Shown here: positions 1,482 through 29,697 of the stretch, piece after piece
How the letters are laid out: every line of letters begins with the position of its first letter
Position numbering within the stretch: position 1 is the stretch's first letter
Assembly (NCBI RefSeq): GCF_013315695.1
Contig: NZ_CP054353.1
From: Escherichia coli
Lineage (GTDB): Bacteria > Pseudomonadota > Gammaproteobacteria > Enterobacterales > Enterobacteriaceae
Length of the DNA stretch: 64,000 bases
Direction: 5' to 3' (one strand)
The notes under the pieces: model-generated
Databases searched by the model: none
What the model saw: the letters and a program-made list of their open reading frames with translations, nothing else
Told to the model about the DNA's origin: nothing
Made by a program: the position numbers and the translations under genes

Positions 1482-1545
1482 CAGCGCGTGAATGCGGGGC
1501 TGTTTTTCGGGAGGATGTCGCCACACAAAACACCAGGAGGTGCTC

Positions 1546-2727
1546 ATGAGTGAAACACGCTTTCACGGTGCACGCGTCAAAGAAAACACCGACCTTGTGA
1601 CCGCGATTAATGACATTGATTCCAGTGTCATCGGTATCGTGGCCACGGCGGACGATGCAGACAGCGACGCGTTCCCGTTAAACAAACCCGTATTGATCAC
1701 CCGCGTGGCGAATGTGCTGGGTAAGGCAGGCACAACAGGCACGCTGTACAAAACGCTCAAGGCGATTTCCGACCAGACCAGCCCGAAGGTTATCGTGGTG
1801 CGTGTGGCTGAAGCCGGAGAGGAAGGTGAGACACAGGATCAGCTTGTCATCGGTGGCTCGCAGGCTGACGGCAGCTACACGGGCATGTATGCCCTGCTGG
1901 TTGCTGAACAGGACGAGAGCATTGGTTACCGCCCGCGCATTCTGGCGGCTCCCGGCCTGGATACCGAAGCAGTCACATCCGCCCTGTGCGTCATTGCGGA
2001 CAAGCTCCGCGCCTTTGTGTACGCCGGATGTAACGGGTGCGACACGATGGCGGAGGCAATCACTTACCGTGCGAAGTTCTCCGCGCGTGAGCTGATGCTG
2101 CTGTGGCCTGACTTCATTGCCTACAACCCGGTGAGCGGAAATAACGAAACATTTCCGGCAGCGGCGTATGCGTGCGGGTTGCGTGCGCGGATTGACAGTG
2201 AACAGGGCTGGCACAAGTCACTGTCCAACGTGGCGCTGAAAAATGTTCTCGGTATGTCGCAGCAGGTGTTCTGGTCGTTGCAGGCCGAAGACAGTGATGC
2301 GAACAACCTGAACAACAAGGAAATCACCACGATTATTCGCCGTAACGGCTTCCGCTTCTGGGGGAACCGTACTGCCGAAACCAGCGACTACATCTTTGAG
2401 GTGTACACGCGCACAGCGCAGATTCTGGCAGATACCATCGCTGAGGCGCAGTTCGAAACCATTGACGAACCGCTGACCCCGGCGAACGTGAAGGACGTGA
2501 TTAGCGCCATCCGCGCAAAACTCAACGCCCTGGTCACCGCCGGGAAACTCATCGGTGCGGAGTGCTGGTATGACGTGCTGGACAACGGCACGACGGATTT
2601 GCGTCAGGGGCGCGTGCGCATCCGCTACAAGTACACGCCAGTGCCGCCGATGGAAGATCTGACGCTGTATCAGACCTTCACGGATGAGTATTTCGACTCC
2701 GCTTTTGCAACGCTGGGAGGTGCGTAA
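1546..2727 (+). CDS. gpFI: Contractile tail sheath protein (P2 FI-like)
   Basis: ORF track 1492..2727. Start set to ATG 1546 (MSETRFHGARV), preceded by AGGAGG. Collinear by eye with P2 FI (FPLNKPVLIT, GWHKSLSNV, RRNGFRFWGNRT, YTRTAQ, YKYTPVPP). Confidence 0.92.
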   Translation: MSETRFHGARVKENTDLVTAINDIDSSVIGIVATADDADSDAFPLNKPVLITRVANVLGKAGTTGTLYKTLKAISDQTSPKVIVVRVAEAGEEGETQDQLVIGGSQADGSYTGMYALLVAEQDESIGYRPRILAAPGLDTEAVTSALCVIADKLRAFVYAGCNGCDTMAEAITYRAKFSARELMLLWPDFIAYNPVSGNNETFPAAAYACGLRARIDSEQGWHKSLSNVALKNVLGMSQQVFWSLQAEDSDANNLNNKEITTIIRRNGFRFWGNRTAETSDYIFEVYTRTAQILADTIAEAQFETIDEPLTPANVKDVISAIRAKLNALVTAGKLIGAECWYDVLDNGTTDLRQGRVRIRYKYTPVPPMEDLTLYQTFTDEYFDSAFATLGGA

Positions 2728-3243
2728 ATGGCTGTACCACGTTACGTTCGCCAGTTCACGCTGTTTGTGAACGGCAAAAACAAAATCGGCACGGTGACAG
2801 GCGTCACTCTGCCCAAGCTGACCCGAAAAACCGAAGCCTATCGCGGTGGCGGGATGCTGGGTGCGGTGCATATTGACCTCGGACTGGATGACGGCGCACT
2901 GGATGCCTCGTTCACCACCGGTGGGGTTGAAAAAGAGCTGCTCCAGGAATACGCCACTGACATTAACGAAGTGGCGCTGCGCTTTGTGGGTGAGCTGTTC
3001 ACCGATGGTGAGGAAAGTCAGCTCCTTGAGGTGGAGATGCGCGGACGCATCACGGAAATCGACCGTGGCGAAACCAAACAGGGCGACACCACACAGTACA
3101 CCTTCGCCGTCAAAAACACCTACTACAAGGAGTCGGTGGATGACAGTGATGTGACAGAAATCGACCTGCTGAACTTCATCTACAAAAAAGACGGCCAGAA
3201 CGTCTTTGGTGACCGCGTGAGTTCGGCGCTCGGTCTGAACTGA
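2728..3243 (+). CDS. gpFII: Tail tube protein (P2 FII-like)
   Basis: ORF track. Abuts the sheath stop codon (TAAATG). 171 aa, in the position and size of FII. Confidence 0.85.
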   Translation: MAVPRYVRQFTLFVNGKNKIGTVTGVTLPKLTRKTEAYRGGGMLGAVHIDLGLDDGALDASFTTGGVEKELLQEYATDINEVALRFVGELFTDGEESQLLEVEMRGRITEIDRGETKQGDTTQYTFAVKNTYYKESVDDSDVTEIDLLNFIYKKDGQNVFGDRVSSALGLN

Positions 3244-3673: not shown

Positions 3674-3837
3674 TCACGCTGGCGAAGTTCGACAACGTTG
3701 AAGAACTGGTCGCTGATATAGCAGTCGTGTTTAACTGGTCGCCCGGCGAGATATTCTCAATGCCTCTCGTCGAGGTGATGAGCTGGCGTGAGCGGGCGGC
3801 GCAACGTAGCGGAGTCCGCAACAGTGAAATCCCTTGA
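3290..3837 (+). CDS. gpE': Tail assembly chaperone frameshift product (gpE+E'-like, programmed -1 frameshift)
   Basis: Codons AAT TTT TTT GCT at 3617..3628. A -1 slip on the T run 3619..3625 opens a frame with no stop until TGA 3835..3837. The extension ends ...NWSPGEIFSMPLVEVMSWRERAAQRSGVRNSEIP and overlaps the tape-measure start. Confidence 0.75.
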
Positions 3838-6800
3838 TATTCGTGTCAGCTTTGGCGCAATTGACCGGCTGACATGCCCGACCGAAAACGCCCGCCGTCA
3901 GGTGGGCGCTCTCACTGAATCCCTTCAGAAGACGCAGAACAACATACAGGCGCTCGACAGACAGTCGAAGGTGTTCGATCGTGCCGCCGGAAATCTCAGT
4001 AAATACCGCGAACAGATTGCCCGCGCGGAGCAGAGGCTCGCCGGGCTGCGAAAGGCAGAGCAGAACGGTAACATCCTCTCCGAAAAGCAGCGCGAAACGC
4101 TGGCGGCACTCTCCGCGCGGCTTGAGCGCCTGAACGAGCTGCGCACGCGCGAGCGCGAAAAACTCCAGGCGGCGGCTGGCGAAATGCGTAAACATGGCAT
4201 TCTGCTTTCCGGCAGCAGCCGCACCATCGAAAGTGCCGTTCGTCGCACGCAGCAGTACAACGAGCAGCTCGAGCGTGAACGGCAGGCTCTGGCTCGCGTG
4301 ACGCAGGCACAGAGCCGCTATGAGGCCGCGAAGGCACAGGCGGAAAAACTGCGCAACACAGGGGCTGTGGCGATGGCGGCGGGTACAGGCGGCCTGTATG
4401 CGGCGCAGCGCATGATGGCTCCGGCGATGGAGTCCGAACAGCACGGTGCGGTCATCGCAGCCGGTTCGGGGGAAGGCGCACAGGATGGCGCACGTTACAC
4501 CCACATCATCCGTAACATACAGGCTGACGGTCTCGCTGATTTTGCCGGTGCTGCGGAGGCCGTGAGTGCGGTACGCAGCACGCTCGGCGCACTGGGCGAC
4601 ACCGGTGACAGGGAGCTTGAGCGCATCAGCCGTCGTGCGCTGGATATGCGGACCGTCTTTGGTGTTGATGTGCCGCAGAGCATTCAGGCCGCTGCCATCA
4701 TGATGAAGAACGGGCTGGCCGCCAGCAGTGACGAGGCTACTAACCTGATGACGGCAGGGATGCAGCGCATGTCCGCTGAAATGCGCGATGAACTGCCGGA
4801 AATTCTGCATGAGTATTCCACCCACTTCCGCAACATGGGCTTCACCGGCAGCGAGACAATGAGTCTGCTGGTTGAGATGGCAAAGCAGGGCAAGTTTGCG
4901 CTGGACAAAACCGGCGATGCCGTGAAGGAGTTCAGTATCCGTGGTTCGGATATGTCGAAATCCAGTGTTTCAGCGTATGAGACACTTGGCCTGAATGCCG
5001 AACGGGTGTCTGCTGCCATTGCTCAGGGGGGCAGTACCGCACGCCAGGCGATGCAGGTGACCGCCCGTGCACTGCTGGCCATCCGTGACCCGGCAGAGCG
5101 GGCGAACACGGCCATTGCGTTATTCGGCACCCCCGTTGAAGACCTTTCCGTTGACCAGATCCCGCAGTTCCTGAGGGCGCTGGCTGATGTTCGTGACAAT
5201 CTGGGCGATGTCACCGGTGTGGCAGACCGCATGGGGCAGACGCTGCGCGGTAATCTCTCCGGCGATATTCAGGCGCTGAGTGGTGCGTTCTCAGGGCTAC
5301 GCACGGACATCTTCGGTACTGTGACCGAGGATTTGCGCGGGCTGGTTCAGACGGTGAGCGCGTGGGTGACCCGGATGCGCGAATGGGTCGGAGAGCATCA
5401 GGCGCTGGTCAGGGTGCTGGTACTGGCGGGCGGGAGTGTTCTGGCGCTGTCTTCTACGTTCGGTGCGCTGTCACTGACGCTCGGGCTGATTGCGGGGCCG
5501 CTGGCAAAACTGCAACTGGGACTGGGGCTGCTGACGGGGGGCGGCGGCATTGGTGGTGCTGTCCGGCTTGTGTCTGCGATGGCGCTGCGCCTGACGGGGC
5601 TGCCTGCGCTGTGGGGGCTGGTCACGGGGGCGGTGTCGGTACTGGGTGGTGCAGTGGGGGCGCTGTTCAGCCCGGTCGGGCTGATTGTTGCCGCCCTGGT
5701 GGGCGGCGCGGTTCTGGTGTGGAAATACTGGGATCAGATCAGTGCGTTTTTTTCCGGCTTTTTTGCCGGAGTGTGGGAGGCGCTGCAACCGCTGCGGGAA
5801 GCCTTTGCGTCGCTGGCTCCGGTGTTCGGGCTGATTGGCGATGGCATCAAAGCCGTGTGGGAATGGTTCACCCGCCTGCTTGAACCTGCAAACGCCTCAA
5901 AAGAGACACTCGACAAATGCACCAGCGCCGGGGAGTCGTTCGGGAAAACGCTGGGGTGGGTCATTCAGAACATTGTGCTGGGGCCGCTGACACTGCTTCT
6001 TGATGGCCTCGGCACAGTGCTGAAGTGGCTGGGTGTTATCCCGGATGGCATCAGGGAAGCGCAGAAGGAGACGCAAAAACTCCAGGAGAGCGCCGCAAAA
6101 CAGGCCACACAAAAAGCGCCGGTTGCGTGGGAGTGGGATCCTGCACAGAAAAAAATGGTGCAGAAAACATGGTCGTGGTCATCAGATGCAGCGGAAAACA
6201 ACGGTGACAATAAACCCGCAATACCTGCCCCTGCGGTTCCCGGAGAGGTGAAGGGAACGTCAGACAATCCGGTCGGCAAACCCGGTAGTAAATCCCCGCT
6301 GGATGAGGCATGGTTCCGGCAGGGGATACAGAAAACCGCCAGCAACACCGGCGGGCTGCTTGAGGAAACCAAAAAACGTACTGGTCCCGGCGATATTGTT
6401 TTCAAAAACCTGCCCGGACCCGAAATCATTCACGGCGAGTGGAAAGCACCGCAGGTTATCCGGACAGTGCAGGCGGTATCGGCGGGCGGAGGACTGGCGG
6501 ATGCGCTGACAACGCTCTGGCAGAAACTCACCGGAAGACAGACTGCTTCACCCGTTCCGGTCGTGAATATTCCTGCGCCAGTGGAGAGAGTGGCACGTCA
6601 GGTATCCACGCTGCCACAGCCGCAGCACAACGAGGCAAATACAGAACTGGTTGCCGGTATTCAGCGCGTGCATGAGGCTGTGAACAGTCCGGGGGGAGAG
6701 ACGGTATCGCCTCCACCTGTGGTGAACGTTCTGATGCCAGCAGTGAATGTTCCTGCGCCAGTGGTGAGTGTGGCGCGTCAGGTATCCACGCTGCCGCAGC

Positions 6801-7288
6801 ACAACGAGGCAAATACAGAACTGGTTGCCGGTATTCAGCGTGTGCATGAGGCGGTGAACAGTCCGGGTGGAGAGACGGTATCGCCTCCACCTGTGGTGAA
6901 CGTTCTGATGCCAGCAGTGAATGTTCCTGCGCCAGTGGTGAGCGTGGCCCGTCAGGTATCCACGCTGCCGCAGCACAACGAGGCAAATACAGAGCTGGCT
7001 GCCGGTATTCAGCGCGTGCGTGAGGCTGTGAACAGTCCGGGTGGAGATGTGGCTTTATCTGTTCCTGTTGCGGAGGTTATCCGTCCACCGCTGCGACCGG
7101 AGTCCGTCAAAAAAGAAACCGCGCCACAAACGCAGGCTGCGGTATTTTCCGGTGAGATACACGTGCATCTGCACAACGTCAACACGCAGAATCCGCGTGA
7201 ACTGGCAAAACTGGTTGGCGAGGCTGTCCGCGAAGAGATGCGCAGACAGGTGCGTACAGGCATGAACAGCTTCCGTGACAGGGACTAA
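3824..7288 (+). CDS. gpT: Tail tape measure protein (P2 gpT-like)
   Basis: ORF track 3788..7288. The start is ambiguous: GTG 3788, or GTG 3824 (VKSLDIRVSFGAIDRL) with GGAG 9 nt upstream. Long helical N-terminal half, a Gly/Ala/Leu-rich hydrophobic core, and a position between E' and U. Confidence 0.9.
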   Translation: MKSLDIRVSFGAIDRLTCPTENARRQVGALTESLQKTQNNIQALDRQSKVFDRAAGNLSKYREQIARAEQRLAGLRKAEQNGNILSEKQRETLAALSARLERLNELRTREREKLQAAAGEMRKHGILLSGSSRTIESAVRRTQQYNEQLERERQALARVTQAQSRYEAAKAQAEKLRNTGAVAMAAGTGGLYAAQRMMAPAMESEQHGAVIAAGSGEGAQDGARYTHIIRNIQADGLADFAGAAEAVSAVRSTLGALGDTGDRELERISRRALDMRTVFGVDVPQSIQAAAIMMKNGLAASSDEATNLMTAGMQRMSAEMRDELPEILHEYSTHFRNMGFTGSETMSLLVEMAKQGKFALDKTGDAVKEFSIRGSDMSKSSVSAYETLGLNAERVSAAIAQGGSTARQAMQVTARALLAIRDPAERANTAIALFGTPVEDLSVDQIPQFLRALADVRDNLGDVTGVADRMGQTLRGNLSGDIQALSGAFSGLRTDIFGTVTEDLRGLVQTVSAWVTRMREWVGEHQALVRVLVLAGGSVLALSSTFGALSLTLGLIAGPLAKLQLGLGLLTGGGGIGGAVRLVSAMALRLTGLPALWGLVTGAVSVLGGAVGALFSPVGLIVAALVGGAVLVWKYWDQISAFFSGFFAGVWEALQPLREAFASLAPVFGLIGDGIKAVWEWFTRLLEPANASKETLDKCTSAGESFGKTLGWVIQNIVLGPLTLLLDGLGTVLKWLGVIPDGIREAQKETQKLQESAAKQATQKAPVAWEWDPAQKKMVQKTWSWSSDAAENNGDNKPAIPAPAVPGEVKGTSDNPVGKPGSKSPLDEAWFRQGIQKTASNTGGLLEETKKRTGPGDIVFKNLPGPEIIHGEWKAPQVIRTVQAVSAGGGLADALTTLWQKLTGRQTASPVPVVNIPAPVERVARQVSTLPQPQHNEANTELVAGIQRVHEAVNSPGGETVSPPPVVNVLMPAVNVPAPVVSVARQVSTLPQHNEANTELVAGIQRVHEAVNSPGGETVSPPPVVNVLMPAVNVPAPVVSVARQVSTLPQHNEANTELAAGIQRVREAVNSPGGDVALSVPVAEVIRPPLRPESVKKETAPQTQAAVFSGEIHVHLHNVNTQNPRELAKLVGEAVREEMRRQVRTGMNSFRDRD
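6551..7045 (+). repeat. In-frame tandem repeat inside the tape measure gene (174-bp unit, about 2.8 copies)
   Basis: Units lie at 6698..6871 and 6872..7045 (58 aa each: ETVSPPPVVNVLMPAVNVPAPVVSVARQVSTLPQHNEANTELVAGIQRVHEAVNSPGG, nearly identical). A partial variant copy sits at 6551..6697 with an extra PQ. Confidence 0.9.
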
Positions 7289-7301
7289 AGGAGACGCAAT
7301 T

Positions 7302-7760
7302 ATGATGATGATTTTTGGCATGTTTGTGTTTGAACTGAAAACGCTGCCGCATCAACAGATTCAACAAAACAAAACGTGGCGGCATGTGAAAAATGAGCGA
7401 ATCAACCGTTCTGCGGCCTGGCAGTATATTGGCGCAGGTGACGACCAGATCACGCTGTCCGGTCTGCTGTACCCGGAAATTACCGGCGGTGAGGTGTCGC
7501 TGACACTGCTGAACACCCAGGCCTACACCGGATGTCCCTGGCCGCTGATTGATGGTACGGGGCAGATTTACGGAATGTACGTGATTACGGGATTACAGAC
7601 CACCCGCTCCGAACTGGATCGCTACGGGAAGGCAAAAAAGATTGAGTTCTCCATCAGCTTTCAGCGGTGTGATGAGGATATGCGGGAGAGGCTTCAGTCT
7701 GCTTCTGCAGGTGATTTACTGAACACGCTTAAAGACAAAATGGCGATAGCGGCATTCTGA
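7302..7760 (+). CDS. gpU: Tail protein (P2 gpU-like)
   Basis: ORF track 7275..7760. Start set to ATG 7302 (MMMIFGMFVFELKTLPHQ) after AAGGAG, 14 nt after the tape-measure stop. Confidence 0.85.
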   Translation: MMMIFGMFVFELKTLPHQQIQQNKTWRHVKNERINRSAAWQYIGAGDDQITLSGLLYPEITGGEVSLTLLNTQAYTGCPWPLIDGTGQIYGMYVITGLQTTRSELDRYGKAKKIEFSISFQRCDEDMRERLQSASAGDLLNTLKDKMAIAAF

Positions 7761-7771
7761 ATAAAAAAAGA

Positions 7772-7792
7772 GGGAGTGTAAAAAGCACTCCC
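7772..7792 (+). terminator. Stem-loop after gpU (weak intrinsic terminator)
   Basis: GGGAGTG-TAAAAAG-CACTCCC followed by TTATT, 12 nt after the gpU stop. Confidence 0.45.
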
Positions 7793-7884
7793 TTATTGCC
7801 TTCATGGAAAAGAAGCAAATGTTGTCAATACATTCTGACTATATATAAATCGCCCGATGAAGGCAATGGTGATGTTCGGGAAAT

Positions 7885-7907
7885 AAAAAAGCCCTCACAA
7901 AGAGGGC
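7885..7907 (-). terminator. Orphan intrinsic terminator (minus strand)
   Basis: Plus strand reads A6-GCCCTC-ACAAA-GAGGGC, so on the minus strand a hairpin is followed by T6. No intact gene lies upstream of it. Confidence 0.5.
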
Positions 7908-8070
7908 GGCATGCATTGTGTGAAGATTTAATTTTTCTGCTTGCAGGGGGATTATATTGAACGGTATTCATTCAATGCAATATTTTTAATTGTCATTATC
8001 ATTAATGAAAATGTTTCTTGTGTTTTTGTTGCTCTGATTACAATCCCGTTTATTACTGTGTCTTTGCGGC

Positions 8071-8096
8071 AAAAAAAAAGCCCGCACGGGGCGGGC
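8071..8096 (-). terminator. Intrinsic terminator downstream of the tfa pseudogene (minus strand)
   Basis: Plus strand reads A9-GCCCGC-ACGG-GGCGGGC. On the minus strand a GC hairpin is followed by T9, about 45 nt after the pseudogene stop. Confidence 0.65.
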
Positions 8097-8140
8097 AAAG
8101 AATGTTTGCATGTGTAGAACAGTGCGGGATTATAAATATA

Positions 8141-8710
8141 TTATGCGTTCTGAAAAGTCCCCTTTGATGGAGATTCAGGCCATACCAGCGCATTATAACA
8201 ATCTTTATTCATCACGGAAGTGAACGTCAACTGCTGAAGTTCCCTAATATATTCAATCCACGTAGCCAACCTTCCCTTGTCTGCATTGCTGATGGTGCCG
8301 GGCAATAACTCAGATTGCCAGATTCTGATCCTCTCTTTTGCCTCCGGCAGCAGGGGATTTCGTTGTCATTCTGCTTTAGCCTGCCACTTTTCAGGTGGCA
8401 GCACATGACGAACAATATTTTCATCATCAAATATCCAGTTACCTGAGTCATCAGCACGTTGGTTAGCGTTAATATCAGAAGTATTAACAACACTAAAACC
8501 GACATGATTAAGTGTTGATGCCTCTCTGGTAATGGTGACAATAATATTATTTCGTTGTAAATCATTTTGATTTTATCTGGTCGAAAGGTCCCTGCTTCGT
8601 TATGTCAGTTTTATCGCCTTCAGAGGAAACCAGATTACTTTGTGCTTCTTTTTCTAACACATACAGTCCCGGAGTTAATATTGCCTGTTTTATGTTCTTG
8701 AGTGCATCAT
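8141..8710 (-). pseudogene. Tail fibre assembly protein (Tfa/TfaE-like) pseudogene with several 1-nt frameshifts
   Basis: Manual three-frame reading on the minus strand gives MMH / LKNIKQAILTPG...DQIKSK / MIYNE / NNIIVTITREASTLNHVGFSVVNTSDINANQRADDSGNWIFDDENIV...WQAKAE / ...LLPEAKERIRIWQSELLPGTISNADKGRLATWIEYIRELQQLTFTS...VWPESP. The pieces are collinear with remembered e14/Mu-type Tfa proteins. The 112-aa ORF 8227..8565 is only one of these frames. Confidence 0.6.
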
Positions 8711-8770
8711 ATTAATCTCTTACATATTGTATCTGGTGAAATTTATAATTTTCTGAAGCTGCCTGAAAGA

Positions 8771-8898
8771 ATTGAGTTTCCTGCAGGCTTTCAATGGTGT
8801 GATGAGGATATGTGGGAGAAACTCCAGTCTGCTCCTGCAGGGGGGGCTTACTGAACACTATCAAAGACAAATCTTCGTCGTTGATCGCATTCCCTTAA
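8771..8898 (+). pseudogene. Degenerate duplicate of the 3' end of gpU
   Basis: attgagtttcctgcaggctttcaatggtgtgatgaggatatgtgggagaaactccagtctgctcctgcagg... aligns at roughly 80% with gpU 7641..7760 on the same strand. The frame is broken. Confidence 0.7.
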
Positions 8899-8903
8899 CC
8901 TGA

Positions 8904-8938
8904 CGCCACCACCCCACACAGATGACGGGGTGGTGGCG
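8904..8938. terminator. 12-bp GC-rich stem-loop between the convergent tail and fibre gene sets
   Basis: CGCCACCACCCC-(11 nt)-GGGGTGGTGGCG lies between the gpU remnant (+) and orf98 (-). Only weak T tracts flank it. Confidence 0.5.
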
Positions 8939-8943
8939 TGATT

Positions 8944-9240
8944 TCACCAGTAACTAACCAGCAGCCAGAACAACAGGCATATTGCCACTGGTGCAGCAAA
9001 ATCCATCAGGCTTCCGGCATCCCACACGCGCGGATCAAAACCACCCCACCAGGGCATGTTAATTCGTTTCCCTTTCCCGAATTTTTCAATCCAGCGATAT
9101 TCTGCCTGGGTGTGTTCACGCGCAATGAAGAACGAGCAACCGGCTATCGCTCCGTAAACCCAGTTTCCCGTAAGAATGCCAGCCAGTACCTGCGCAGCCA
9201 CGGCACAAAGTGCATGAAGGACAGGCGTTATATCCATCAC
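8944..9240 (-). CDS. Small integral membrane protein, unknown function (three predicted TM segments)
   Basis: ORF track, 98 aa. Hydrophobic stretches at about aa 5-24, 26-40 and 78-97. Last gene of the fibre operon, at the position equivalent to P2 Z/fun. Confidence 0.6.
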   Translation of the reverse strand: MMDITPVLHALCAVAAQVLAGILTGNWVYGAIAGCSFFIAREHTQAEYRWIEKFGKGKRINMPWWGGFDPRVWDAGSLMDFAAPVAICLLFWLLVSYW

Positions 9241-9249
9241 TCCCTCCCT

Positions 9250-9528
9250 TCAGCTCCATTCCCGAAGCGGTGCTTCCAGCTCCACCACATAATCAGAGAA
9301 CACAGAAACATCAAACGTATCATCAAGAATACGAATGTTGACAAAATAACCGTCATTCCGGATACAGACAGGTTCTCCCTCTTCATTTTCCCCTGTTTCT
9401 GTATAGGTGAAACCAATTTCATCGACTAACAGTTTGTTCTGGAGGTCTTCATTTTCCTCCCAGCCAAGAGATGACAGGAGGGCTTTAAACTGCTGTTTGT
9501 CATGAAACTTCAAAGTCAAATCTTTCAT
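9250..9528 (-). CDS. Small acidic protein, unknown function (possible fibre chaperone or accessory)
   Basis: ORF track, 92 aa. Its start overlaps the tail fibre stop by 4 nt, implying translational coupling. Confidence 0.6.
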   Translation of the reverse strand: MKDLTLKFHDKQQFKALLSSLGWEENEDLQNKLLVDEIGFTYTETGENEEGEPVCIRNDGYFVNIRILDDTFDVSVFSDYVVELEAPLREWS

Positions 9529-11306
9529 ATTGCCTCTCTTAATTGCCTGTCATTTAATTCTTTATGCCATATGCGGAAATTACGAATGTGACCAAACAGA
9601 TGTCGTTCTCCAGTACTCGTTCGCCCTCCAATACGGATAATTGCGGAGTTCTGAATATATGACCATGTGGTTTTTGTTTCGCCGGATAACCGTCCGTTAC
9701 TGACTGAGCATGTAGACTGATCTGACTTTACTCGCATCCCTATAACCATTTTTTCAAGTGATGCGTTTTCGTTTACCCGCATGTTAGCCCCGCCTATATC
9801 GCAATAAGGAAATCCGTCGTAATCCGTCGAACGACCGAATCCAAGAATAATTTCCTCTCCAGTTTGATGACCACTGGTATTAAGAACACGCGGTGCTGCA
9901 TTTGGCGTTTTATACCAGTTCTTATGTACCTCACAAAGAACAGTAAAAGGAGGATTATAAAGATTATTCTTAACCGGAACTGTCACAATATCACTTGCAC
10001 GTGTTGCTGGTGTTGCACCCGATATAATAAATGATGATGCGCAGGGGCCATTTTCAACCTGAGGGGTGGACAGGAAAACATAATCTCCTGATTCAACGAC
10101 ACCACCTTCTTTCGGAGTGTATTGTATTGCCGATGTTATGTAGGACTCATCAATTGCCTGAATCGTTGCCTCTGCAAAAATCCAGCCGGTAACCTCATCT
10201 TTGTTAACTCGGGCAGTGATCCTGTCGGCAGCTCCTCCTGTGATTTTAACTGATAAAGATCGCGTATTAACAATGGCATATCCAAGGTTAGATGATGTGT
10301 TGCCATCGTAAGATTCAAACCTGATCCTTAACATGAGTTCCAGATCAGTTTTAAATCTGCACGATGTCGTCACGCACTTATTATCGCCTGAAACATCGAC
10401 GGCTCCGGTTACTGCAACTGATGCCATGTTAACAGGCAGGGACTGCCCAATCAGAGAATCGTTACAGACGAACTTTCCATAGGTAAAACCAGAACTGTCC
10501 GTCCCGGTTTCGGGAACATCCATATTTACCGACTTGCCCCAGTTGACCGGGGTTTCCGAATTGAGCATGTAGTTTGTTCTTTGCCCTTCAATAAGCAGTC
10601 CATCGCGTTCAAATCGCGGCTCATTAATTTCAGCTATTTTCAGTTCACCGGATTTATTGATATAGGTTGCCGTTGATGCGCGACTGAAACTAACCTGTTT
10701 ATCACTGGCAACCTGAACCACATCGTCACCAATGGTGATTTTTTTATAGCCCGGTGCGAACCCCGTAAGCATATCCAGTGAATCGTTAAACGGTATCCAC
10801 ACATCAGGCAGCGGCGGTACAGACTCCTTTTCCTGCGCAACATATTCTTCAACATAGGCGCGGGTGGCGAGCACGACAGAGGGATCAACTTTCAGTTCGA
10901 CAGACGAAGCACTGGAAACCACAACAATCATGCGAATCGTCTGCGTGCGCCCGCTTCCCTCGGTGAGTACAGGCTTGTAGGTTTCGGGGCAGTTCGCCAC
11001 GGCAATCATCACGCCGTCGCTGTCAAAAAGCCCAATCTCGCGGATCCAGAACCCCCCTTTATCTTCCGGGATAATCATCTCGGCGATAAGCTGGCTGGCA
11101 TCAGACGCGCTGATGCTCAGTTGATTCAATGGGGCGCTGTATACCGTGTTCACCAGATTTTCCATGGAAGCCTCCGGTTCCGGCAGGCTGCCGCCGCCAT
11201 CCCCCAGTTTCATGGTGGTGATGGATATTTTCGAGCCGCTGGCCACCGCCTTTGCCAGACGGGCGGCACCCTTGTCAGTCAGAACAGAAAAATATTTTAC
11301 AGTCAT
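9525..11306 (-). CDS. gpH: Tail fibre protein (P2 gpH-like N-terminus, unrelated AT-rich C-terminal receptor-binding part)
   Basis: ORF track. N-terminal ~150 aa collinear with P2 H (ITTMKLGDGGG, GFWIREIGLFD, IAVANCPETYKP, EGSGRTQTIRM). The C-terminal end (...GERHLFGHIRNFRIWHKELNDRQL) looks like a LamG/concanavalin-type fold motif; that is inference. Confidence 0.85.
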   Translation of the reverse strand: MTVKYFSVLTDKGAARLAKAVASGSKISITTMKLGDGGGSLPEPEASMENLVNTVYSAPLNQLSISASDASQLIAEMIIPEDKGGFWIREIGLFDSDGVMIAVANCPETYKPVLTEGSGRTQTIRMIVVVSSASSVELKVDPSVVLATRAYVEEYVAQEKESVPPLPDVWIPFNDSLDMLTGFAPGYKKITIGDDVVQVASDKQVSFSRASTATYINKSGELKIAEINEPRFERDGLLIEGQRTNYMLNSETPVNWGKSVNMDVPETGTDSSGFTYGKFVCNDSLIGQSLPVNMASVAVTGAVDVSGDNKCVTTSCRFKTDLELMLRIRFESYDGNTSSNLGYAIVNTRSLSVKITGGAADRITARVNKDEVTGWIFAEATIQAIDESYITSAIQYTPKEGGVVESGDYVFLSTPQVENGPCASSFIISGATPATRASDIVTVPVKNNLYNPPFTVLCEVHKNWYKTPNAAPRVLNTSGHQTGEEIILGFGRSTDYDGFPYCDIGGANMRVNENASLEKMVIGMRVKSDQSTCSVSNGRLSGETKTTWSYIQNSAIIRIGGRTSTGERHLFGHIRNFRIWHKELNDRQLREAI

Positions 11307-12079
11307 GAAAAAATCCTCAAAGAATCCTCCAGAAATACCACTGATGCTGTCAGGGTTCCGGTTGTGGCGGTCAGTTGCATCACCGCCTGTGGCTCCACGG
11401 TCACCGCATCATCGCCCGTAACCTGTAATCCCATGACAATCCCCGCATCGACAGATACCGACGGTGTCGGCGGGTAAATGGTGAGCATGTCGCCGTCAAA
11501 GAAAGCCGGAGATGCCCGGAACACCGAAACAGTCTCAACACCGGCAGAAGCGGCTGGCCAGATTGTTGTTTCACTGCCGTCGTGCATGCCGGAAAACACA
11601 CGTGCGACTCCCTGCGTATCCAGCATAATGTTCAGCGAGGCAAGGTGGCGGCTGACCGGACGGGCATCGTCGATCAGTCGTGTCAGCTCGGAGTACGTTT
11701 CCTCTGTGATACCCGCGTCCTGCACGCCAATATCAATGCGGAACGTGCCGCGCGGGTCGCCGTTCTGCCACCACTCCGTCACGTTAATGACATAGCCAAA
11801 GGGTTCAACCACACGCCTGATGGCGCTGATGGTTCCCTTATGGCGGTGGATTGCCCAGGCATCACGGATCACCTGGCGCTTTGTTTCTTCCGTCCAGTCA
11901 CGATCCCACCTGTCCACGGACAGCGCCCACGCCAGATAAGGCAGCAGGGCTGCCGGGCAGGTGTCAGGATCCCAGAGCTGGTTAAGGCTGACAGGTAATG
12001 CTGACAACCGGGCGGTTCCCCGCTCCACGCAGCGCATGAAATCGCTGGCTGAAGGGGGGAGAAGTGACGGTTCACTCAT
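11303..12079 (-). CDS. gpI: Baseplate/tail protein (P2 gpI-like, with C-terminal extension)
   Basis: ORF track 11303..12142. Start set to ATG 12079 (MSEPSLLPPSASDF), overlapping the gpJ stop. The motif LLPYLAWALSVD is typical of gpI. Confidence 0.8.
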   Translation of the reverse strand: MSEPSLLPPSASDFMRCVERGTARLSALPVSLNQLWDPDTCPAALLPYLAWALSVDRWDRDWTEETKRQVIRDAWAIHRHKGTISAIRRVVEPFGYVINVTEWWQNGDPRGTFRIDIGVQDAGITEETYSELTRLIDDARPVSRHLASLNIMLDTQGVARVFSGMHDGSETTIWPAASAGVETVSVFRASPAFFDGDMLTIYPPTPSVSVDAGIVMGLQVTGDDAVTVEPQAVMQLTATTGTLTASVVFLEDSLRIFS

Positions 12080-12968
12080 TGGTTCCCCCTGTGCTGACCG
12101 TGAACGATGTGCAGTACGCTGACTGCACATCACTGATAACAATATTCTGTGCGGGGCTGGTCAGTTCCACGCGCTGAACGCCCTGAACATGCAGTGCGGC
12201 CATGATGGCGGAGAGCGCGACATCGCGACCGATTTTGCCCTGTTCGGCAAGCCAGGTTTCCAGATTGTTTCTGGCGGCATTCAGGATGGGTTCCGACTCC
12301 GGCCCCGGATAAAAGTAAAGCCGGGCATCAATCTGATACCGTATGATTTCTGCGCTCTGCACCGTCAGACGGTCACCGACCGGGCGAACGTCTTCGGCAT
12401 TCAGCGCATTTCTGACCGTTGTCAGGAGTTCTTCGGTCGCCGTGCCGTCGCCTTCTGTGGACAACACTGTCACCACCACTTCCGCCGGTGCGGGGCTGGT
12501 TGCGCGCGCGTCCGCCACCTGACCGCTGGCACTGCGGGCAAAATATTCATACGCCCCGGTGGGACCGGCCACGCTGAGGCCATCAAATGCAGACTGCGCA
12601 CGCAGCCGCAGGGCGGAGTCGCTTTCCATGACGGCCTCCGTGGTGTCCATGGCCGGTGTGATGACCAGCCGCGCGGTGTTCATGTTGGCAGCGAGGTTGT
12701 CCAGGTCATCACCTGTGGAATGGCTCAGCATACAGGCCGCTGCGCCCTCATTAATGCGCTGGCGAAGCAGCAGTTCACGCAGCGCGAAAGCCTGGGCAAT
12801 GACCGTGAGCGGTTCGGACTCCAACGCCATGGCTGACCGGATGGCAGCCTGCTGTGTCTGTGGAAATGACGTAATGATGTCTTCTTTCACTTCCGCTAGG
12901 ATGACTTCAAAATCCGGCGTTTCAATAATCTGTGGTGTCGGCAGTTCCGACAGGTCAACGGCTGGCAT
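12072..12968 (-). CDS. gpJ: Baseplate wedge protein (P2 gpJ-like)
   Basis: ORF track, 298 aa, placed between gpW and gpI. Confidence 0.85.
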   Translation of the reverse strand: MPAVDLSELPTPQIIETPDFEVILAEVKEDIITSFPQTQQAAIRSAMALESEPLTVIAQAFALRELLLRQRINEGAAACMLSHSTGDDLDNLAANMNTARLVITPAMDTTEAVMESDSALRLRAQSAFDGLSVAGPTGAYEYFARSASGQVADARATSPAPAEVVVTVLSTEGDGTATEELLTTVRNALNAEDVRPVGDRLTVQSAEIIRYQIDARLYFYPGPESEPILNAARNNLETWLAEQGKIGRDVALSAIMAALHVQGVQRVELTSPAQNIVISDVQSAYCTSFTVSTGGTNE

Positions 12969-29429: not shown

Positions 29430-29437
29430 CTCGGGGT

Positions 29438-29513
29438 GGCGAGACGTACAGGGTTCTCAACACCGGAGAGCAAAGAATCCGGCCCGACCGAAGTCGGCCC
29501 CGTACGTCCCGCC
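29438..29513 (-). ncRNA. Candidate C4/CI-type antisense regulatory RNA (76-nt three-way junction)
   Basis: The minus-strand RNA is GGCGGGACGUACGGGGCCGACUUCGGUCGGGCCGGAUUCUUUGCUCUCCGGUGUUGAGAACCCUGUACGUCUCGCC. It has a 16-bp closing stem with two G-U pairs (C-A on the other strand), a UUCG tetraloop hairpin, and a CCGGA/UCCGG hairpin displaying CUUUGCUC. The boundaries given are the stem ends, not mapped RNA ends. Confidence 0.55.
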
Positions 29514-29554
29514 ATAATTCTGACGCGAAAAAGACGTGGCAATACAGTACGCAC

Positions 29555-29574
29555 AAAAAAACCGCTGGCGCGGT
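29555..29574 (-). terminator. Intrinsic terminator inside the early operon leader
   Basis: The minus strand reads ACCGC-GCCA-GCGGU followed by U7. Confidence 0.6.
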
Positions 29575-29580
29575 TATGCG

Positions 29581-29605
29581 CTTTGCTCTGTATCGGGTTG
29601 AGAAT
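29581..29605 (-). promoter_or_regulatory. Upstream antisense target pair a1/b1
   Basis: On the minus-strand RNA, AUUCUCAAC (29605..29597) and AGAGCAAAG (29589..29581) are separated by 7 nt and sit immediately 5' of the terminator. Confidence 0.5.
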
Positions 29606-29697
29606 CCCGGCACCCGTTTTATGAGGTGCAGCGGAAATGTAACCTGACCGATTGCGGCATGGCAAGCGGTTTTTTTGTGTGTGCATGTTCTGGTTTC

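Follow-up and report, generated by a model that had tools for sequence, protein, structure and literature searches.

The region immediately 3′ of the intact tail gene gpU (positions 7761 to 8938 of a 64,000-nucleotide stretch of the Escherichia coli contig NZ_CP054353.1, assembly GCF_013315695.1; this whole stretch is hereafter "the window") is very probably a functionless scar of recombination that one old exchange of the tail-fibre module left in the host-range region of a P88-like (Peduoviridae) prophage. In this prophage the plus-strand sheath–tube–E–T–U operon faces a minus-strand baseplate and fibre operon (as placed by Pfam matches to gpD, sheath, tube, gpI and gpJ), and because the two operons converge, gpU, with its stop at 7760, faces the fibre gene and the tail-fibre assembly gene (tfa). 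Among isolated phages, P88 and its fellow Xuanwuvirus members have the nearest gpU (79% amino acid identity), and since P88 likewise has its gpU facing fibre genes, the interval 3′ of gpU is the host-range variable region of this phage group. An earlier reading of the bare letters (the original prediction) had seen here a layered scar of swapped and decaying host-range or defence cargo. The AT-rich character that it described is evident (GC 36–47% over 7700–8900, against 55–60% in the flanks), and tfa is indeed a decaying leftover, but the exchange has an anatomy different from the one proposed.

First, there is a second gpU 3′ end. As the original prediction had claimed, a frame-broken copy lies downstream of the intact gene, with coordinates that we correct slightly to 8766–8898. 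Its 8766–8871 portion aligns with gpU 7636–7739 at ~80% identity (BLAST E about 1e-19 to 5e-21), and the frame is broken in the window by a 2-nt insertion in a G run. This relic, psi-U′, consists only of the last ~44 codons with conserved residues replaced, and thus falls short of the full-length open reading frame (ORF) of a functional PF06995 gene. Directly adjoining it is an element that the original prediction had missed, the 3′ end of a displaced fibre gene (8768–8714). The similarity in DNA to the S/U junction region of P1 and the H/G junction region of P2 extends past the tfa start codon, up to 8747–8767, and this segment is therefore the end of the fibre gene that once preceded tfa. 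The join links a point ~54 nt before the fibre-gene stop to a point 125 nt before the second gpU stop, and because the fibre stub abuts the gpU copy with only 2–5 nt of common sequence, it is an illegitimate join and not a homologous crossover in gpU. The duplicated end hence does mark a junction, as proposed, but recombination within gpU by homology is not what made it.

Second, the displaced module remains at this boundary as a relic, made up of psi-tfa and the 18-codon fibre stub, both of which share 72–75% DNA identity with P2 H/G and P1 S/U. The part of psi-tfa at 8551–8144 still reads in a single frame as the C-terminal 136 residues, with 63% amino acid identity to an intact Tfa (tblastn E 2e-60) and a match to PF02413 (E 4e-14), save for one in-frame TGA at 8368–8366 that arose by substitution. 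Against P1 gene U and P2 gene G, the N-terminal third (8712–8552) needs six or more indels that shift the frame. With its frame interrupted and its cognate fibre gene cut to 18 codons, psi-tfa does not qualify as a functional Caudo_TAP (PF02413) gene. The broken frames, the stop and the intact terminator had all been recognized from the start; the start codon has moved (ATG at 8712/8709, not 8710), and the count of frameshifts has risen from at least three. The terminator stem is invariant in all relatives, and this element is probably still effective for the minus-strand fibre operon. Since the perfect hairpin on the other side of the scar (8939–8903) lacks, as read from the sequence, a minus-strand U-tract, late transcripts of the fibre operon probably cross the scar to the old tfa terminator (8096–8071).

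Might the broken frames instead be sequencing or assembly errors in a tfa that is really intact, the outcome that the original prediction had named as its own refutation? Several of the indels do fall in short homopolymer runs. However, the 8072–8925 sequence is identical in three independent assemblies. None of 5,426 complete E. coli genomes has the window's exact prophage variant (7000–12500), their best match reaching 91.4% identity, and it occurs at 99.5–99.97% in one IMG/VR contig and two metagenome contigs: the IMG/VR contig (L019) is 99.8% identical, with zero differences in 8072–8925, and the metagenome contigs (L146, 99.97%; L147, 99.5%) are gap-free over the scar and have the same broken frames. 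The recurrence of these frames in three independent assemblies argues that they are no sequencing artefact. Further against this explanation stand the number of indels (at least six), a stop codon that derives from a substitution, and the larger deletions that sister lineages have suffered in the same gene. We regard the error explanation as refuted by these contigs, with practically no chance of being correct.

Third, the junction is shared by common ancestry. The 380-bp spacer that follows gpU is present in 71 of the 5,426 complete genomes, and 70 of these have the same junction (67 of the L004 type and 3 of the L001 type), the remaining one being clean. In the clean layout, seen in strain 135 (L003), gpU is followed by a 379-bp spacer that holds the three terminators, then by an intact gene for a 187-aa Tfa and by the fibre gene; another relative, L016, too has gpU, spacer, intact tfa and fibre gene. 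Aligning the junction across relatives, as the original prediction had recommended, thus recovers an intact arrangement as well as the same broken frames in the three contigs above. The L001/L002 type (n = 3) has the window's layout, including a gpU copy 88.9% identical to the window's, and lacks the counterpart of window positions 8367–8725 through an internal deletion of psi-tfa. In the L004 type (n = 67, including ST131) the scar is more eroded, with ~130 bp of the tfa 3′ end and ~70 bp of the tfa 5′ end left around a different deletion; the same fibre stub and the same junction are kept, and the gpU stub, too diverged for BLAST, is clear by alignment. The junction between the fibre 3′ end and psi-U′ accordingly recurs in L001/L002 and in the ST131-type L004, L005 and L006, each with a different internal deletion of psi-tfa. 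The frame break in the gpU copy also differs (+2 nt in the window, +1 nt in L001). The copies in the window, L001/L002 and L004 nevertheless share a derived R-to-W change in QRCDED, at a position where R is invariant in every functional gpU examined, and this common W argues for one old event inherited by the lineages. The anatomy of the scar, its junction, the common ancestry of that junction and the decay around it are established. An old scar that is close to fixation in its lineage does not indicate ongoing turnover at this exact spot in this genome, and it lends no support to the recombination hot spot envisaged in the original prediction.

Sister prophages show further decay near the fibre locus (L001 7134–7736, L002 5177–6943, L006 7235–8447, L007 3324–3824), with gpI and fibre genes annotated as pseudogenes and an IS3 insertion in L006; in L007 the fibre module is deleted and a terminase fragment (annotated "oxidoreductase") adjoins the scar. 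Many copies of this prophage lineage are probably defective. The 70-aa "tail fiber assembly protein" of RefSeq at L002 4141–4353 is a C-terminal pseudogene fragment of the L001/L002-type scar, and the annotation is probably spurious.

Fourth, the exchange brought in the fibre module that lies to the right of the gpU copy (8944–~10830), rather than anything between gpU and the copy. The cargo swapping of the original prediction thus survives as a change in a host-range variable region, with the position of the newcomer corrected. The current tail fibre joins a conserved N-terminal domain to a heterologous distal domain shared with unrelated phages: the conserved P2-type collar (PF12571) spans aa 1–149, and phrog_1419, which is separate from the collar-domain families, spans aa 148–593. 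Both small genes (98 aa and 92 aa) and the last ~25 codons of the fibre gene (its 3′ end, 9525–9600) are ~88% identical in nucleotide sequence to lambdoid phages, and in lambdoid phages such as 21 and ev017 the 8955–9600 sequence follows the side tail fibre gene. The small genes of the 8944–9640 block (minus strand), which P2-like and lambda-like phages (phage 21, ev017, 4A7, Perceval) have in common, belong to phrog_1443 and phrog_1361, families without known function. The gpU stub is in every case followed on its right by a homologue of the 98-aa membrane protein, beyond which the fibre modules differ. The 92-aa gene is found only in the window-type and L001-type versions, and it may have been gained at the join or later. 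The exchange left the old Tfa-type chaperone without its cognate fibre, which explains its decay.

These observations suggest a simple course of events. The ancestral layout would have been gpU, the 380-bp spacer, tfa and fibre. One illegitimate crossover with another phage genome, collinear with the first (reading U′, hairpin, 98-aa gene and, further on, fibre′) and offset by about 1.1 kb, would then have connected a point ~54 nt before the resident fibre stop to one 125 nt short of the stop in the partner's gpU. The product would have retained the resident T, U, spacer and tfa together with the fibre-gene stub, and would have acquired the partner's gpU tail, hairpin, 98-aa gene and a different distal fibre. 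Subsequently, the old tfa, now without a cognate fibre, would have decayed through point indels and a stop codon in the window lineage and through internal deletions in its sisters, while the gpU stub would have drifted as well. We infer the direction and the number of crossovers from the order of elements: a single offset crossover yields exactly the order observed, and both stubs are thereby explained at once.

Several points weigh against this scenario. The partner layout, an intact gpU of the U′ type or a gpU followed by the 98-aa gene, was not found in any collection searched: not in the complete E. coli genomes, nor in 80 gpU loci from IMG/VR and 43 loci from GTDB, nor by scanning IMG/VR and metagenomes with the degenerate motif FQWCDEDMWEK. 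Apart from the same scar, these searches returned nothing but the lineage's own gpU, at ≤81%. With no partner found, an origin of U′ in a different phage cannot be demonstrated, and an unequal event within one genome could have supplied it. In addition, the window and L001 are 88–89% identical in the scar and only 75% identical in 7908–8070, so the segments have different histories and allow only a partial ordering of events. Finally, the clean layout of strain 135 could be a secondary repair by recombination and not the ancestral state.

Alternatively, the gpU copy may be the product of a tandem duplication, in which unequal illegitimate recombination between sister copies of one genome linked the fibre 3′ end to the gpU 3′ end, and the second copy of tfa and fibre was later replaced by homologous exchange with the gpU stub and the fibre N-terminus as arms. 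This comes close to the recombination within gpU of the original prediction. The end of a segment (fibre 3′) joined to its start (gpU 3′) is the classic signature of such a duplication, and U′ is closest (80–81%) to the lineage's own gpU, none of the other sampled gpU sequences being nearer. The two differ at 11 of ~35 residues, including positions invariant among functional gpU proteins, which fits decay rather than orthologous divergence, and what follows U′ on its right, the hairpin as well as the fibre, is of different types in different lineages, a pattern to be expected of exchanges that ended within the stub. On the other hand, the U′ tail (SSSLIAFP*) and its hairpin are unlike the resident gpU tail and terminator in kind, neither the spacer nor tfa has left remains of a second copy, and more events are required than with a single heterologous crossover. 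We consider a duplication unlikely, though far from negligible, and favour the single crossover with a second phage.

Given this origin, what is the 380-bp spacer between gpU and psi-tfa? Since the spacer and its three terminators are also found beside the intact tfa of strain 135, it is not debris of the scar event, and the "orphan" terminators, the inverted-repeat segment and 7908–8070 are not scars of cargo lost in that event, as the original prediction had held them to be. The lineage has conserved the spacer as a feature in its own right, present in all 71 genomes regardless of scar state and without a counterpart among sequenced phage isolates or in more distant gpU-bearing loci. The region holds 10 terminator-like sites, compared with 2.6 ± 2.1 in shuffled sequences. 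Both predicted minus-strand terminators (8096–8080 and 7907–7891) are confirmed, and a third, at 7793–7771, joins them. The 7883–7907 terminator has 95.7% identity in every relative, also where tfa is intact, and that at 7771–7793 shows a compensatory stem change in L003 (GTG/CAC to GTC/GAC). The idea that the three terminator units are stacked tfa 3′ ends or tandem paralogues was rejected, as their alignments, overlapping bases aside, are no better than those of shuffled sequences. The 11-bp perfect inverted repeat is present as described; as a conserved structure it was rejected, for relatives pair 9 of 11 positions or fewer and show no covariation.

Conservation within the spacer is patchy, the terminators and 7795–7884 being 92–100% identical to relatives and 7908–8070 only 75–82%. 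Two islands stand out in the variable part: an 11-mer (AATATAATCCC, 7958–7948) and a 22-mer on the minus strand at 7931–7910 (TTAAATCTTCACACAATGCATG; within unit A, UUAAAUCUUCACACAAUGCAUG), both invariant across seven haplotypes, in a neighbourhood where 29 of 62 columns vary (47%), although the seven haplotypes belong to one close lineage with mosaic histories. Here a candidate small RNA (sRNA), unit A, can be delineated on the minus strand, with a promoter, a variable ~17-nt 5′ end, the invariant block, and a terminator with a U-tract in that order. The three haplotypes of the segment between the −35 and −10 boxes are quite different, and all conform to TTG-17/18-TATAAT. The predicted fold leaves the invariant block unpaired ahead of the terminator hairpin and U-tract, so that unit A has the anatomy of a ~60-nt small RNA. 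A second candidate, unit B, is C/U-rich, with invariant runs of 19 nt (7856–7838) and 17 nt (7836–7820) across the seven haplotypes and a fold z-score of −3.3. Judged by consensus matches, both units combine a promoter, a Rho-independent terminator and the absence of an ORF within 50–300 nt.

It is tempting to view the spacer as a functional "RNA moron", that is, one or two tandem minus-strand sRNA genes (A, ~7944–7883; B, ~7831–7765), each with its own sigma-70 promoter and intrinsic terminator, which would act on host or phage mRNAs via an invariant single-stranded block. Such a function would be compatible with the scar. We hold this tentatively, as an appreciable possibility short of a favoured one. 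The conservation islands (the 22-mer directly 5′ of the terminator and AATATAATCCC), the promoter spacing kept in three haplotypes, the excess of terminators, the unpaired invariant block and the retention of the spacer whatever the scar state all point in this direction. Conversely, the spacer has no Rfam match at E up to 10, a literature search with the invariant sequences returned nothing, and complement searches for candidate sRNA targets in the window matched only the loci themselves. The homologues are all about 85–92% identical, which leaves the conservation statistics with low power, and mosaic recombination could mimic the islands; with the pseudogenes taken as a neutral yardstick, the window–L001 and window–L004 comparisons rank oppositely, indicating mosaic histories. 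Moreover, plus-strand promoter-like sequences overlap unit B, and the 22-mer coincides with a 6-codon plus-strand mini-ORF. The sRNA in 7908–8070 that the original prediction had left open hence gains some support from the patchy conservation (the invariant −10 box and the 22-mer), with no Rfam family to back it. That the spacer holds at least one real sRNA is possible, if the less probable outcome, and that its one or two previously undescribed prophage sRNAs would act on mRNAs of the host or of competing phages is a little more doubtful still.

Other sequence features touch on these units. Read on the plus strand (7910–7931), the 22-mer is C + ATG CAT TGT GTG AAG ATT TAA, a mini-ORF spanning exactly start to stop, with GAGGG 4–5 nt upstream inside the terminator stem; this may be a coincidence. 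A third promoter-like site (TTTTCA-16-TATAAT, 8125–8156, minus strand) overlaps the tfa stop codon, and the 14 nt TATTTATAATCCCG lying 3′ of that stop are invariant in all relatives and have ATAATCCC in common with the −10 box of unit A. A transcript from this site would run ~50 nt to the tfa terminator. Among known RNA families, none was found in the region (7600–9100 at a permissive E-value; the whole window at the gathering threshold), and elsewhere the window has gathering-level Rfam matches to the C4 antisense RNA (79 bits) and the Hfq-binding RNA IsrK (63 bits), which adjoin each other in the early region of the same prophage (29432–29519 and 29555–29629, both on the minus strand).

A further possibility, that the spacer conceals decaying or cryptic defence or toxin cargo, whether a type I toxin–antitoxin system or small membrane toxin in 7908–8117 or the remnant of a hotspot equivalent to P2 Z/fun, is very improbable. 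The DNA is AT-rich and foreign-looking, and the site is one that we take to be topologically equivalent to the tfa-proximal cargo hotspot of P2-like phages. Within 7908–8070 there are the 16-codon minus-strand ORF noted previously and a 58-codon plus-strand TTG frame, and a plus-strand frame with a hydrophobic stretch of ~30 residues is open in six of seven haplotypes. Nonetheless, its variable sites are spread 14:13:15 over the codon positions with pN/pS of 0.4–0.7, L006 has an in-frame stop, no start codon is conserved, and the frame on the complementary strand is just as open, which is what an antisense artefact would give. The frame 7941–8117 (plus strand) was accordingly rejected as a small toxin for want of codon-position bias and a conserved start and for the stop in one haplotype, and the small toxin that the original prediction had allowed for falls with it. 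Its defence cargo fares no better, as a PADLOC search for defence families among the ORFs of 7796–8565 and the 92-aa and 98-aa proteins had no matches.

The features discussed are collected in Table 1 together with their neighbours. The hairpin between psi-U′ and the 98-aa gene folds with −30.8 kcal/mol (z-score −5.05), and one of its pairs has undergone a compensatory change (C-G to U-A) in L001 relative to the window. The P2-like prophage sits in an E. coli chromosomal window whose ppsA flank is 100% identical to several genomes. In RefSeq relatives gpU is called "phage tail protein" and lies directly 3′ of the tape measure gene, the 3′ part of which (6563–7047, plus strand) contains tandem repeats of ~174–180 bp, visible as peptide blocks PVV(N/S)V...ARQVSTLPQ...HNEANTEL, whose copy number varies among relatives.

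Table 1. Coordinates in the window of the scar, the spacer and the neighbouring prophage genes
Feature	Position	Strand	Basis
gpD	268–1566	−	Pfam
Sheath	1492–2727	+	Pfam
Tube	2728–3243	+	Pfam
Tape measure gene	3788–7288	+	Pfam
gpU, intact tail gene, last of the sheath–tube–E–T–U operon	7302–7760	+	PF06995, E 7.7e-40
Candidate sRNA unit B	7765–7866	−	TTGCCT-17-TATAGT 7866–7838; ~67 nt (about 7831–7765); terminator 7793–7771
Hairpin directly 3′ of gpU with A-run and T-run flanks; bidirectional terminator (gpU, minus-strand transcripts)	7771–7793		Terminator scan
11-bp perfect inverted repeat, arms 7795–7805 and 7857–7867	7795–7867		Repeat search
Intrinsic terminator, stem 7907–7891 and U-tract ("orphan" of the original prediction)	7883–7907	−	Terminator scan
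Candidate sRNA unit A	7883–7980	−	−35 TTGCAT 7980–7975; 18-nt spacer; −10 TATAAT 7956–7951; ~60 nt to terminator 7907–7891
Most variable part of the spacer, without a supported gene	7976–8070		75–82% identity to relatives
tfa terminator, stem 8096–8080 and run of 9 U	8071–8096	−	Terminator scan
psi-tfa, pseudogene of the displaced tail-fibre assembly gene	8141–8712	−	tblastn; PF02413; comparison with P1 U / P2 G
Fibre stub, last ~18 codons and stop of the displaced fibre gene (like P1 S, P2 H)	8714–8768	−	DNA similarity
psi-U′, relic of a second gpU 3′ end, frame-broken, own stop 8896–8898	8766–8898	+	Alignment, BLAST
13-bp perfect hairpin between psi-U′ and the 98-aa gene	8903–8939		Inverted-repeat search, folding
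98-aa predicted membrane protein, phrog_1443, constant neighbour of psi-U′	8944–9240	−	phrog match
92-aa protein, phrog_1361	9250–9528	−	phrog match
Current tail fibre, N-terminal collar domain and heterologous distal part	9525–11306	−	PF12571, phrog_1419
gpI, gpJ		−	Pfam

Taken as a whole, the scar offers a tidy, datable example of how a P2/P88-like phage may change its host range via one illegitimate crossover followed by decay of the displaced genes, and the three sister lineages, having eroded it differently, form a small natural series for the study of pseudogene decay in prophages. It also carries a warning for annotation, in that short "tail fiber assembly protein" or "hypothetical" calls at this place in ST131-type prophages are relics. 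Were the spacer units expressed, they would constitute new prophage sRNAs in clinically important E. coli lineages, the prophage lineage being common in ST131 and other E. coli.

How does the locus relate to known systems? That P2, P1, Mu, lambda and their relatives trade tail-fibre (H/S) and assembly (G/U/tfa) genes horizontally is a classical case of mosaicism, and in P2-like phages the sequence that follows tfa is a known site of variation. The present case resembles this mosaicism in combining a conserved N-terminal fibre domain with a heterologous distal part and accessory genes, the displaced tfa and stub resembling P2 H/G and P1 S/U and the new module being common with lambdoid phages. 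It departs from it in that the displaced module stays as a pseudogene, one boundary is an illegitimate join that duplicates the gpU end, and the scar has been kept while an entire prophage lineage diversified. The locus is thus a well-preserved, lineage-wide fossil of a known kind of fibre exchange, with an unusual boundary.

A closer counterpart is P88 (genus Xuanwuvirus, Peduoviridae), whose tail fibre determines host range (PMC5285337). The two share a gpU, 79% identical, that converges on fibre and tfa genes, with the host-range variable region between gpU and fibre. In P88 a DNA invertase and an invertible segment with alternative fibre and tfa genes lie between U and the fibre gene, whereas the window lineage lacks the invertase and has in its place the scar and the 380-bp AT-rich spacer, the latter absent from all sequenced phage isolates.

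Phage morons are AT-rich insertions that sit between late genes and bring a promoter and a terminator of their own. The spacer matches this picture in being AT-rich (36–40% GC versus about 55–60%), in lying between two late operons, and in possessing promoter-like and terminator elements; it differs in having no protein-coding gene, so that its product, if functional, would be RNA. In this respect the candidate units are akin to the prophage sRNAs IsrK and C4 (29432–29629) in their predicted length of ~60–70 nt, their putative sigma-70 promoter and intrinsic terminator, their prophage location and a block that is invariant in the seven haplotypes and predicted to be unpaired, and are set apart from them by matching no Rfam family in sequence or structure.

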